A stretch of 64,000 bases of DNA from Eledone cirrhosa (Eukaryota). Location: the NCBI GenBank assembly GCA_964016885.1, contig OZ024754.1, positions 24,986,001 through 25,050,000 on the forward strand, in the 5' to 3' direction. Within the stretch, counting starts at the first letter, position 1, and each line of letters begins with the position of its first letter. The notes beneath the pieces were generated by a model that saw only the letters and a program-made list of their open reading frames with translations, had not been told where the DNA came from and searched no databases. Made by a program: the position numbers and the translations under genes. This document shows positions 1-30,902 of the stretch, one piece after another.

Positions 1-1874
1 ATATATATATACACATATATATATATATACATATATATATATATATACACATATATATATATATACAATATATATATATATATACATATATATATATATA
101 TATACATATATATATATACATACATATATATATATACATACATATATATATATATATACATATATATATATATATACATATATATATATATATACATATA
201 TATATATACATATATATATATATAATATACATATATATATATATACATATATATATATATATACATATATATATACATATATATATATATATACATATAT
301 ATATACATATATATATATATATACATATATATATATACATATATATAATATATATACATATATATATATATATACATATATATATATATACATATATACA
401 TATATACATATACATATATACATATATACATATATACATATACATACATATATATATATATATATATACATATATACATATATATATATATATATATATA
501 TATATATACATATACATATATACATATATATATATATATATATACATATATACATATACATATATATATATATATATATACATATACATATATACATATA
601 TATATATACATATATACATATACATATATATATATACATATATATATATACATATATACATATACATATATATATATATACATATATATATATACATATA
701 TACATATACATATATATATATATACATATATATATATATATATATACATATATATATATATATACATACATATATATATACATATATATATATATATATA
801 TATATATACATATATATATATATACATATATACATATATATATATATATATATACATATATACATATATATATATATATATATATATACATATATATATA
901 TATATATATACATATATACATATATATATATATATATATACATATATACATATATATATATAATATATATACATATATACATATATATATATATATATAT
1001 ACATATATATATATATATATATACATATATATATACATATATATATATATATATACATATATATATATATATATATATATATATATATACATATATATAT
1101 ATATACATATATATATATACATATATATATATACATATATTATATATATACATATATATATACATATATATATATACATATATATATATATATATATATA
1201 TACATATATATATATATATACATATATATACATATATATATATACATATATATATATATATATATATATACATATATATATATACAATATATATATATAT
1301 ATACATATATATACATATATATATATATATATATACACATATATATACATATACATATATATATATATATATACATATACATATATATACAATATATATA
1401 TACATATATATACATATATATATATACATATATATATATATATATATACATATATATACATATATATATATATATATATACACATATATATACATATACA
1501 TATATATATATATATACATATACATATATATATATATATACATATATATACATATATATATATATATACACATATATATACATATACATATATATATATA
1601 TACATATATATATATATATATATATACATATATATACATATATATACATATATATATACATATATATATAATACATATATATACATAATATATATATATA
1701 TACATACATACATATATATACATATATATATATATATATACATACATACATATATACATATATACATATATATATATATATACATACATACATATATATA
1801 CATACATACATATATATACATACATACATATATATACATATATATATATACATACATATATATACATATATATA
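1..1874. repeat. (TA)n microsatellite interrupted by C (TACA/ATAC units)
   Basis: Directly visible. Similar tracts lie at about 4503-5124, 9448-9720, 11133-12707, 13122-14212, 14892-15758, 17006-17786, 22585-23055, 25816-28400 and 29114-30902. Confidence 0.99.
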
Positions 1875-1913
1875 TAATATAAGATCAAAAGATGGTTAAA
1901 GGAGTTCCATATA

Positions 1914-1980
1914 TTTTATTATGCGCATTTCAAAAACAAACATCATCAAACAATAATATTTGTGTTTTCATCAGATAAAA
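1914..1980 (-). ncRNA. Type I hammerhead ribozyme (left-arm copy)
   Basis: Minus strand reads TTTTAT-CTGATGA-AAACACAAATA...TGTTTGTTTTT-GAAA-TGCGCA-TA-ATAAAA. Confidence 0.8.
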
Positions 1981-2988
1981 CAGGAGAACATGATATGAAG
2001 GCTAAAAAACACTTGTTTGTAGTGCAGTTTTAAATCAAAATATGAAAAGTGGTTTTAGATTGATGTGTGATATTGGGAAAAATATTTTATTTAGAGAGGG
2101 GGGGGAGAAAAGGATGAAAAGGGAAGGAGATGAGAGGGAGAGATGGGTGATAGAGAGAAAGAGATAGTTTTTATAACTGAGAGGAGATATATTTTATATA
2201 GAGGGGTTGAAAACCGTTGGAAGATACTGTATAAATTAAAAATTTTGAAAATTAACGAAGGGAGGATATGTGCGAGGAAAAAATATTTTATTTAGGGATG
2301 GGGGGGGGTTGGAAAGGATGAAAAAAAGGGGAGGAGATGAGAGTGAAGGTGGAAAGGGAGAGATGGGTGATAGAGAGAAAGAGATAGTTTTTATAACTGA
2401 GAAAAAGATATAATGTTTTAATATAGAGAGGTTGGGAACCGTTGGAAGATAATGTATAAATTAAAGGAATTTGAAAATTAACGAAGGGAAATTATGTATG
2501 AAGATAGAGAGAAAAAAATAATAATTGTGGGTGAATATTCTAACGTCAAAAGAAGAAATGTATGTATTGTGGGAATTTCAAAATTAGCAAAGAGAAAAAA
2601 AGTTTATGTGTAGAAGGATTTGAGAAAAATAATGTGAAGTTAAAGTTTGTATATTGAATTCATATGTATTAATAATGAGTTCGTTGATGGGGAGAAAAAA
2701 AAAATAATAATATTATTTTAAAAGACAAAAACATTAAATATAACATCTTTTGGAAAAAGATTTCTTCTGCATCCTCATACTTGAACAGCTCTCTATCTAA
2801 AATCTGTAATCTCTGCCTAAATGAAAAATTTACCATTATCTCTAACCTAGAATCCATAATAAATAGACGCTCAGATTTGTTTTCTATCTGCCTGCATAAA
2901 TTCCATAGAACTTTTCACAAAGTATACAGTTAATATTCAATTCTTTATCAATTTAGAATCTTTTCTCAAAGGCACATATACATACACC

Positions 2989-3590
2989 TCTTTAAAATAT
3001 ACCCATCTACCTTACTTTAAAGGGCATTATACACTCTATAATACTCGTTTACTCATTACCCTCATTCTATCTTCTCGTAAAACAATAACATTTGTTTTTG
3101 ACATTTTGAATATTCATCCGCAATCGTAGACGGTCGGACGCCATGCTTTGCAGCAAAGAGTTACGGCCCTTTATGGTCTGAGTTCAAATCCCGCCGAGGT
3201 TAATTTTGCCTTTCATCCTTACGGGGTCGATAAAATAAAGTACCAGTAATACATTGGGATAATTGCTGGCCTTGTGCCAAAAGTAGAAACAATTATTATT
3301 TTTTCTCTCTATCATAAATCTTTTTAATCTCAATTTCATCCTTAATTTATTATTATATTTTTTTTAATATATACTCGTATATTCTTTAAAATATACCCAT
3401 CTACCTTACTTTAAAGGGCATTATACACTCTATAATACTCGTTTACTCATTACCCTCATTCTATCTTCTCGTAAAACAATAACATTTGTTTTTGACATTT
3501 TGAGTATTCATCCGCAATCATTATTATTTTTTCTCTCTATCATAAATCTTTTTAATCTCAATTTCATCCTTAATTTATTATTATTATTTT
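2989..3590 (+). repeat. ~200-bp tandem duplication; the first copy is interrupted by a SINE
   Basis: 2989-3125 plus 3292-3356 matches 3383-3590 (CTTTAAAATATACCCATCTACC...CATCCGCAATC|ATTATTATTTTTTCTCTCTATC). Confidence 0.9.
3126..3291 (+). mobile_element. 5'-truncated tRNA-derived SINE with a conserved central domain (MetaSINE-like)
   Basis: B box-like GAGTTCAAATCCC, then GCCTTTCATCCTTACGGGGTCGATAAAATAAAGTACCAGT, then an (ATT)n-like tail. It is absent from the second copy of the flanking duplication. Confidence 0.75.
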
Positions 3591-4306
3591 TTTTCTCCCC
3601 ATCAACGAACTCATTATTAATACATATGAATTCAATATACAAACTTTAACTTCACATTATTTTTCTCAAATCCTTCTACACATAAACTTTTTTTCTCTTT
3701 GCTAATTTTGAAATTCCCACAATACATACATTTCTTCTTTTGACGTTAGAATATTCACCCACAATTATTATTTTTTTCTCTCTATCTTCATACATAATTT
3801 CCCTTCGTTAATTTTCAAATTCCTTTAATTTATACATTATCTTCCAACGGTTCCCAACCTCTCTATATTAAAACATTATATCTTTTTCTCAGTTATAAAA
3901 ACTATCTCTTTCTCTCTATCACCCATCTCTCCCTTTCCACCTTCACTCTCATCTCCTCCCCTTTTTTTCATCCTTTCCAACCCCCCCCCTCCCTAAATAA
4001 AATATTTTTTCCTCGCACATATCCTCCCTTCGTTAATTTTCAAAATGTTTAATTTATACAGTATCTTCCAACGGTTTTCAACCCCTCTATATAAAATATA
4101 TCTCCTCTCAGTTATAAAAACTATCTCTTTCTCTCTATCACCCATCTCTCCCTCTCATCTCCTTCCCTTTTCATCCTTTTCTCCCCCCCTCTCTAAATAA
4201 AATATTTTTCCCAATATCACACATCAATCTAAAACCACTTTTCATATGTTGATTTAAAACTGCACTATCAACAAGTGTTTTTTAGCCTTCATATCATGTT
4301 CTCCTG

Positions 4307-28752: not shown

Positions 28753-28784
28753 TATATATATACATATATATATATATACATATT

Positions 28785-29113
28785 TTTTTTTTTTTCATCA
28801 TTTTACGTCCACTTTTCACTGCTTGCAAGGGTGGGACGGGAACTGATTCTGGCTTGATTTCTACAGCTGGATACCCTTCCTAACACCAACCTCATTTACA
28901 GTGAGTGCTGGGTGCTTTTTTTGCCGTGGCACCTCCACGACCACTTTGCAGTGGAATGATAGGGACCCCAGTCCCTATCATCTCATTTCTACAGCTGAGT
29001 AATGTGAAATAAAGTGTCTTGCTCAAGGAAACAACACATCACCCGGTCTGAGAATTGAACTCACAACTTTTCGATTGCAAGCCCAATGCTCTAATCACTA
29101 AGCCATGTGCCTC
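28785..29113 (-). mobile_element. Inverted second copy of the same SINE (tail-to-tail)
   Basis: Reverse complement of 28403-28740 with a few substitutions and a ~13-nt deletion. Confidence 0.92.
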
Positions 29114-29784
29114 CATATATATACATATATATACATATATATATAAACATATATATATACATATATATGTATATACATATATATATATATACATATATAT
29201 ACATATATATACATATACATATATATACATATATATACATATATACATATATATGTATATACATATTATATATATACATATATATATATATACATATATA
29301 TATATATACATATATATACATATATATGTATATACATATATATATGTATATATATACATATATATACTATACATATATATGTATATACATATATATATGT
29401 ATATATATACATATATATATATACATATATGTATATACATATATATATACATATATATATATACATATATATGTATATACATATATACATATATACATAT
29501 ATACATATATACATATATATATATACATATATATATATACATATATATATATAATATATATATATACATATATACATATATATATATATATATACATATA
29601 TACATATATATACATATATATATACATATATATGTATATACATATACATATATACATATATATACATATATATGTATATACATATATATACATATATATG
29701 TATATTCATATATATACATATATATCCCACCCTCTCCTACCACTTGTAGAGACCTATAAATACCATATTTATTTTTTGATACCC

Positions 29785-29835
29785 AGATTCCTGATGATTT
29801 CTAATGAATGAAACAGTTCTAGTCCTGTAGAATCT
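29785..29835 (+). ncRNA. Type I hammerhead ribozyme in a 125-bp island (29726-29851)
   Basis: AGATTC-CTGATGA-TTTC-TAAT-GAAT-GAAA-CAG-TTCTAGTC-CTG-TA-GAATCT. All three stems pair; GUA site. Confidence 0.88.
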
Positions 29836-30902
29836 CTTCTATATTAAAACTATATATACATATATATATATATATATATATATACATATATATACATATA
29901 TATGTATATACATATATATATACATATAAATATAGATATATATATATACATATATATACATATATATATATATATACATATATATATATATATGTATATA
30001 CATATATATACATATATATACATATACATATATATATACATATATATAATATACATATATACATATACACATATATATATACATATATATACATATATAT
30101 ATATATATACATATATATACATATATATACATATACACATATATATACATATATATAACATATATATATATATAAATATATATATAATAAATATATATAT
30201 ATATAACATATATATATATATAAATATATATATATATAAATATATATATATATATACATATATATATATATGTATATACATATATATAAATATATATATA
30301 TATATACATATATATATATATAAATATATATATATATAATATATATATATATACATATATATATATATGTATATACATATATATACATACATATATATAT
30401 ATATATATGTATATACATATATATACATATATATATATACTATATATACATATATATATATACACATATAATATATATATATAATATATATATATATATA
30501 TGTATATATATATATGTATATATATGTATATATATATGTATATATATGTATATACATATATATATATATATATGTATGTATATATATGTATATACATATA
30601 TATATATATGTATATATATATATATATATATATATATATATTTATACTATATATATATGTATATACTATTATATATATTTATATATATGTATATACATAT
30701 ATATATATATGTATATCTATTATACTATATATATATATATATTATATATATATATATAAATATATATATAATAATATATATAATATATATTATATATATA
30801 TATATAATATATATATATATATACATATATAATATATAGTATAATATACATATATATATACATAATATATATATATATAATATTATATATAATATGTATA
30901 TA

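Follow-up and report, generated by a model that had tools for sequence, protein, structure and literature searches.

Hydra-clade Penelope-like elements (PLEs) end in an endonuclease with CxxC and CxH motifs around E and N, carry a hammerhead ribozyme motif near the 3' end, insert in (TA)n and can bear an inverted 5'-truncated copy (Craig 2021, PMC8557442). Further marks of the clade are an RT (reverse transcriptase) with RWK and DKT motifs, a CxCX5C linker and the lack of CCHH. By our count, Files S1/S2 of that paper give (TA)n insertion for 26 of 27 Hydra families, and of 25 listed Hydra hammerheads 23 start 87-210 nt before the 3' end. Many of these families have a 4-bp palindromic helix III and U.U at the base of helix II (positions 10.1/11.1; 14 of the 25 motifs by our count). 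The shape of an inverted arm with a tail is described for PLEs in the same source, and the tail has been tied to two reverse-transcription start sites (Frangieh 2024, PMC11167929). A genome can hold many hammerhead families, mostly as single motifs from truncated PLEs (Cervera & de la Pena 2014, PMC4209133), and a PLE origin has been proposed for retrozymes, which exist as monomers, dimers and multimers with type I hammerheads (Cervera & de la Pena 2020, PMC7229834; Li, Clavereau & Pollet 2026, 10.64898/2026.07.22.740005). The stretch compared with these systems here (the window) is 64,000 nt of Eledone cirrhosa, positions 24,986,001 to 25,050,000 of contig OZ024754.1 (assembly GCA_964016885.1). 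Its left part is a TA-rich tract with small hammerhead-bearing islands, which in our judgement are probably the 3' ends of several PLEs (families A, B, D, E and G and a remnant at 9722-11130) together with one retrozyme-like unit (C), copied successively into the tract.

By the boundaries drawn here, TA repeats make up 12,813 bp of positions 1-30,902 and are interrupted by 16 islands, with the second long interspersed element (LINE) and island C counted as one. Ten islands are neither LINEs nor short interspersed elements (SINEs). Seven of the ten have a complete hammerhead core and one, the PLE remnant, has a decayed core, while the two coreless islands are a 62-bp piece of the family A tail and a 17-bp insert (13744-13760), the latter standing alone as non-TA sequence within the tract. 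A sequence-only reading of this DNA, made without database searches, had held that hammerheads account for most of the islands outside LINEs and SINEs and that at least five families are present. Both statements stand, and the six families A, B, C, D, E and G give no mutual blastn match at E<0.05 when the islands are compared.

A descriptor for type I hammerheads was run on both strands; it was written after the motifs had been seen and allows U4C and a mismatch at 10.1/11.1. It matches eight motifs of five families in the left 30.9 kb, with C3 at -1974, +4313, -12807 and +12936 in family A, -15841 in B, +22212 in C, +25662 in D and +29791 in E. These are the cores that had been placed at 1914, 4307, 12747 and 12930 (one family), 15799, 22206, 25657 and 29785, numbers that mark the low ends of the motifs. 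Dinucleotide shuffles of the 18,066 bp of islands gave a mean of 0.12 matches, a maximum of 2 and at least five matches in 0 of 300 shuffles, compared with the eight observed, four of which are copies of family A. The excess over shuffled sequence that the earlier reading implied is therefore present. The core (CUGANGA, GAAA and UH around three helices, helix I open) is complete in A, C, D, E and F, carries U4C in B, and has a helix I of 2 bp in G. A search of the seven LINE and SINE islands for a minimal or half hammerhead motif found none. Such a density, with six families complete and a further one decayed within 31 kb, is mildly unusual.

Family A is a 5'-truncated end of a protein-coding Hydra-type PLE and not a ribozyme mini-element, because it is attached to endonuclease sequence, has variable 5' and fixed 3' ends, and has a depth profile that rises toward its 3' end. 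The open reading frame (ORF) piece at 2714-2933 has 172 protein matches at E<=1e-3 in an exhaustive phmmer search; it is 44% identical to P0149 over 62 aa, and the CxCX5C linker is present in matches such as P0149. The product has the CxxC, E, N, CxH pattern given for the Hydra clade in section 11 and the supplementary alignment of Craig 2021. Protein hidden Markov models (HMMs) of Hydra and Neptune type, run on all six frames, match solely family A and the 9722-11130 remnant. A word-indexed homologue search with the endonuclease piece (P0001) gave no match among 164 candidates, Pfam did not recognise it, and ESM Atlas gave only homing-endonuclease leads below 0.9.

The two family A insertions are ~94-95% identical, and private variants are common to both arms of each insertion. 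Their inverted arms differ in length (833 vs 164 bp) and share the same inner end (~4416), and the outer ends (4500, 13119 and 4778) are also the same. The core lies 187 nt from the 3' end, and TA stands at the ends of all three local copies. A 137-bp duplication (2989-3125 = 3383-3519) lies on both sides of the SINE piece in the 3' untranslated region (UTR). Family A is present in public sequencing runs under three organism labels, and no RNA run is listed among those that contain it. When runs were aligned on 2640-4514, depth over the endonuclease bins was 61-75k in X1 and rose ~11- to 27-fold, to 0.85-1.66M, in the 300 bp at the 3' end; the corresponding values were 10-16 vs 33-217 in X5 and 43-92 vs 176-1026 in X6, and as summed contig depth is no copy number, the profile alone was used. 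Among 40 of the 284 substitutions listed for family A, none falls in the catalytic core, and G4349A changes U.G to U-A. Several traits set family A apart from Hydra-clade PLEs: a 3' UTR of 1.5 kb, a tail of 84 nt, a long helix II that has A-U at its base, and no RT in the window copy, which is truncated inside the endonuclease. The motif listed for Hydra-1_Obim of Octopus bimaculoides (Craig 2021 File S2) differs in sequence from the hammerheads of A and of B-G.

In Neptune-clade PLEs the RT is followed by a CX2-5CxxC linker and a CCHH-type GIY-YIG domain, and 5' inversion occurs. The minus-strand remnant at 9722-11130 is like them in these features, and the PLE RT/GIY-YIG remnant noticed earlier among the islands is indeed there. 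By the criteria of Craig 2021, which are domain features and not tree-based, it appears Neptune-like: its GIY-YIG domain has two internal cysteines and two histidines, and the order is RT, then a CX4CxxC linker, then this domain. Its homologues P0002-P0004 show 41-50% identity. In contrast to Neptune-clade PLEs, it is broken by stops and frameshifts and its hammerhead is decayed. The motif in its 3' UTR is likely a decayed hammerhead; it lies 245 nt from the remnant 3' end, and its 7-bp helix II version occurs in 0 of 5000 shuffles (a 6-bp version in 2 of 5000). The remnant has no sequence in common with the small islands and is therefore the parent of none of them.

Minimal PLE hammerheads have an extra nucleotide after A9, G10.1-C11.1, a palindromic minimal helix III and a short helix I (Cervera & de la Pena 2014, PMC4209133), and island G is like them. 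The sequence-only reading had called its motif at 14771 degenerate, which we reject: the core is intact with a 4-bp G-C helix II, the extra nucleotide after A9 and a palindromic minimal helix III, it fits the minimal hammerhead of that paper, and only helix I is short. The motif arises in 1 of 5000 shuffles of island G, and the descriptor missed it only because of the 2-bp helix I. By eye only, a possible decayed 'YIG' motif of a GIY-YIG domain can be made out at the start of this island (14213-14330).

In B, D, E and G, 59-153 nt separate the core from the TA junction at the 3' side (59-187 nt with A included). Because of this position, the counts from Craig 2021 and the reading of lone hammerheads in Cervera and de la Pena (2014), B, D, E and G are most simply read as putative further 5'-truncated PLE 3' ends, although it is possible that they are non-autonomous derivatives. 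PLE identity is shown by attached endonuclease sequence in A and in the 9722-11130 remnant, and is inferred from these likenesses in the four others. Compared with the 25 Hydra motifs of Craig 2021 File S2, B and D differ in having A.G at 10.1/11.1 and B in having U4C, a change that lowers hammerhead activity in vitro (Perreault 2011, PMC3088659). The A.G variant is found in helix II of two unrelated families (15835-15815 in B, 25669-25717 in D). A TATA-box-like TATAAATA lies just 5' of the B and E hammerheads (15846-15860 and 29755-29763). Island E was also considered as a copy of the 310-bp satellite described below and rejected, as the two have only 28 nt in common.

Metazoan non-LTR (long terminal repeat) retrozymes are tandem units of 150-450 bp and low GC with type I hammerheads of extended helix I, and their RNA is expressed as monomers in linear and circular form (Cervera & de la Pena 2020; Li 2026). 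Family C (426-450 bp) and the 310-bp satellite F resemble them in these respects and in a GC content of 34-35%, and both share a U.U mismatch with the axolotl retrozyme HHR_Amex2; by their sequence they are likely retrozyme-like non-coding units that fit the non-LTR retrozyme description. C recurs right of a 200-N assembly gap (30903-31102) between the left TA tract and the right-hand repeat, at 90% identity over 226 bp and in a different circular permutation. In all five C dimers the first unit is without 23 nt that include the 5' strand of helix I, which leaves one complete hammerhead per dimer. C therefore fails the 'active' criterion of at least two consecutive complete hammerheads (Li 2026) though it is retrozyme-like. 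F has complete cores in 53 of 60 cases, a unit of 310 bp with GC 0.34, and at least two consecutive complete type I hammerheads, as retrozymes do by that criterion. Its monomer types differ at 6 of 310 sites; four of these are in the hammerhead and all are tolerated. No F copy was found in 1-30902, where only 28-29 nt of the core are in common with E and C. The proposal that the islands seed the satellite on the right holds at most for C, which recurs there beyond the 200 N between the two halves and may have been copied in either direction, and does not extend to the 310-bp F, which is without a left copy.

The right-hand part (31103-64000) is a higher-order repeat with a unit of 6.6-8.7 kb, made of a C dimer, TA/TG runs, an AT-rich fold-back island and F arrays. 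The fold-back-like island (32133-32648 in the first unit) has internal direct and inverted repeats and is present in each higher-order unit, and F and C join directly at 39035, 45621, 53305 and 62048. A homogenised sub-array of ~12 F units of the second type occupies 56460-60100. The octamer ATGCAAAT stands 5' of the hammerhead in 10 of 10 right-hand C units (31139, 31565 and eight more). Newt satellite 2 has a small nuclear RNA-type promoter. Known retrozymes differ from the window in that here two families are interleaved in one higher-order repeat, and C has an internal TA run and a single complete hammerhead per dimer.

The strongest alternative, which we nevertheless consider unlikely, is that the small islands are independent, non-autonomous ribozyme mini-elements (retrozyme monomers), every one with defined ends, which PLEs would move in trans into TA repeats and which could expand into satellites. 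C speaks for it, being both dispersed and present as five tandem dimers in another permutation, and so do B, D and E, which are without protein. C and F also fold well as circles (z -6.1 and -4.6, 60 shuffles), but on F the opposite strand scores no worse (z -5.1), so that folding does not reveal which strand bears the ribozyme; the use of circular-fold z-scores as proof of an RNA was rejected for the same reason. A short amplified derivative would give the far greater depth of the 3' 300 bp of family A just as truncation does, yet family A adjoins endonuclease sequence without a break, and the 5' ends of its two insertions differ. In B, D and G the hammerhead is of PLE type, with a long helix II or a minimal helix III, and sits close to the 3' end. 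The 64 kb contain B, D, E and G in no tandem copies. The community of PLE-mobilised mini-elements proposed by the sequence-only reading thus survives as several families tied to PLEs and not as regards family A, and the link of families to PLEs within the window is made for A, joined to a Hydra-clade endonuclease, and lacks a PLE protein match for B, C, D, E and G. Overall, that interpretation is partly supported.

A second alternative is that there was no targeting, the tract being a neutral sink for every mobile family or TA having grown around the inserts later, so that the hammerhead islands are simply the PLE share. TA borders are present at all four LINE and three SINE islands too (at one LINE end as a short TA spacer only), and flanks alone therefore cannot set the hammerhead families apart in the window. 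The large TA share of the left part also fits a neutral sink. Against it stands the (TA)n preference published for Hydra families in the files cited above; the case for TA targeting would rest on this, on the preferences published for Neptune and Naiad, and on the AT preference of purified PLE protein. All 17 TA gaps share strand polarity, with 1013 C vs 45 G on the plus strand whatever the orientation of the neighbouring element. This uniformity suggests one pre-existing tract that received inserts in both orientations, and fits it better than later TA growth, although strand-biased mutation would look alike. The absence of targeting appears highly improbable on balance. TA blocks right of the assembly gap have the same C-on-plus lean.

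It is scarcely credible that assembly or fold-back produced the inverted arms and repeats as artefacts and that the motifs are chance matches in AT-rich DNA. Although the region is of low complexity and adjoins an assembly gap, and the descriptor came after the motifs, none of the 300 shuffles reached even five motifs, the arms differ from each other and carry copy-specific variants, and family A is found under three organism labels with variants that keep the structure.

The reading of the islands as PLE 3' ends with one retrozyme-like unit has several results weighing against it. Rfam gave no match at gathering score in the 64 kb. The best score for C was Hammerhead_HH9 at 17.2 bits vs a cut-off of 52 (E 0.11), and by E-value over the whole window miRNA matches on TA repeats dominate, with no hammerhead among the best 150 of 456 rows; minimal and dimeric variants would be expected to match Rfam models poorly. 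The minimum-free-energy folds of the D, E and G monomers differ from the hammerhead fold. B, C, D, E and G are present as one copy each left of the gap and have no match to the Hydra-type and Neptune-type HMMs in six frames. For family A, depth profiles from contigs carry the limit given above, and depth falls after 4403 in contig sets X1, X5 and X6 but not in the raw reads X21 from restriction-site-associated DNA sequencing (RAD-seq). No upstream continuation of other family A copies was found among 24 of 1,466 loose ends listed, all of them in the SINE and with 2640-2723 skipped as repeat. The ~1.5-kb 3' UTR is far longer than expected from Hydra PLE whole-element sizes under 3 kb, and the tail measures 84 nt compared with the usual 30-40, although the inverted-arm shape is seen twice. 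Family A could also be a partly deleted, non-autonomous derivative.

If the islands are PLE 3' ends, a PLE endonuclease would have cut at (TA)n, in keeping with its published preference. Reverse transcription would then have begun from fixed sites near the RNA 3' end and mostly stopped early, so that the last 100-700 nt with the hammerhead remained, as family A shows. Two start sites ~84 nt apart may have produced the inverted arm and the direct arm with its tail, a cause suggested by Frangieh (2024). The hammerheads are predicted self-cutting motifs, with cuts expected after 15803 in B, 22242 in C, 25730 in D and 29829 in E, and most, having a palindromic helix III, are predicted to cut as dimers; self-cleavage was seen in just 1 of 9 predicted retrozymes in Li (2026). 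C and F would be non-coding units amplified in tandem, probably borrowing PLE proteins. A more extended proposal, which we think unlikely, is that this one locus keeps the whole path from a protein-coding Hydra-type PLE end through a lone hammerhead unit and a dimer to a two-family ribozyme satellite organised in higher-order units. C, E and F would then come from Hydra-type 3' ends (shared U.U), internal TA runs would serve as re-entry targets, and B and D would represent an active A.G variant.

The remaining features of the tract are TA-flanked LINEs and SINEs (Table 1). The LINE at 5125..9446, which we take to be RTE-like, has a frame of 1135 unbroken codons (5682-9089; APE endonuclease, RT and PHD finger) and a (GAT)n tail, and ~100 bp of its 3' end are in common, at 80%, with the copies at 28400 and 28782. 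The LINE at 17788..22097 is presumably CR1/L2-like, and we assume that the copies at 28400..29115 and 23057-23270 are SINEs. The SINEs, LINEs and TA load of the window presumably resemble those of octopus genomes. ARAGORN found no tRNA.

Table 1. Coordinates of features in the 64,000-nt window
Feature	Position	Strand	Remarks
Family A insertion 1, inverted 5'-truncated arm	1874..2712	-	Hammerhead C3 1974; 98.8% identity over 837 columns to 3576-4410
Hydra-clade PLE GIY-YIG endonuclease C-terminus	2714..2933	+	Cut at junction with inverted arm
Family A 3' UTR, ~1.5 kb	2934..4416	+	Internal duplications; SINE piece ~3126-3298
Family A hammerhead	4305..4378	+	Long helix II, palindromic 8-nt helix III, predicted cut after 4370
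Family A tail, ~84 nt	4417..4500	+	Direct arm only; identical ends in both insertions
Lone copy of last 62 nt of family A tail	4717..4778	+	100% identical
LINE with APE endonuclease, RT and PHD finger	5125..9446	+	TA-flanked, no hammerhead; second, shorter copy 23927-25315
Neptune-like PLE remnant	9722..11130	-	RT C-terminal part 11035-10763; CX4CxxC linker and GIY-YIG 10755-10204; 5' inversion 11051-11131; 3' UTR
Likely decayed hammerhead, Neptune-like 3' UTR	9928..9973	-	CUGACGA at 9967, perfect 7-bp helix II, no intact GAAA
Family A insertion 2	12713..13119	+	164-bp inverted arm, direct arm from 12881, same tail; hammerheads -12807, +12936
Island G	14213..14890	+	Minimal PLE-type hammerhead, C3 14771, predicted cut after 14798, helix I 2 bp
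Island B	15760..15975	-	Hammerhead 15845-15799, core CCGAAGA (U4C), A.G at 10.1/11.1, 8-bp helix II
Second LINE family, APE and RT	17788..22097	-	Fragment copy 16151-17005; no hammerhead
Island C, dispersed retrozyme-like unit	22119..22584	+	Internal TA run; hammerhead 22192-22258, extended helix I, U.U at 10.1/11.1
Island D	25525..25815	+	Hammerhead 25657-25735, long helix II, helix III 4 bp with 1-nt loop
Two presumed SINE copies, opposite orientation	28400..29115		Third copy 23057-23270; TA-flanked, no hammerhead
Island E	29725..29850	+	Hammerhead 29785-29835, U.U at 10.1/11.1
First of five family C head-to-tail dimers	31103..31842	+	Others start at 39279, 45859, 53549 and 62284
Family F, arrays of 310-bp satellite	32648..62070	-	One hammerhead per unit; TA blocks and C dimers interleaved

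PLE hammerheads, many families per genome, the (TA)n preference, inverted arms with tails, and retrozyme satellites with a PLE origin have all been published. The literature searched did not contain these particular families, and they are no new kind of element. Among the papers examined from searches for cephalopod hammerhead families, Craig 2021 alone bears on them, with most subscription papers outside the search, and nothing was found on non-autonomous Penelope insertion in TA microsatellites. Short strings of the window motifs matched no family in the Craig 2021 supplement, where line breaks can hide matches. Mildly unusual are the long 3' UTR and tail of family A, the occurrence of A.G in both B and D, and a higher-order repeat that combines two retrozyme-like families.

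If the PLE reading is right, this locus would be a compact example of why TA-rich invertebrate genomes teem with lone hammerheads, which would be the 5'-truncation leftovers of (TA)n-inserting PLEs. The fixed ends of family A would offer a ready test of two-start-site PLE reverse transcription in the Hydra clade. C and F would extend the argument that retrozymes derive from PLEs to an invertebrate, an origin that Li (2026) tested in vertebrates only.

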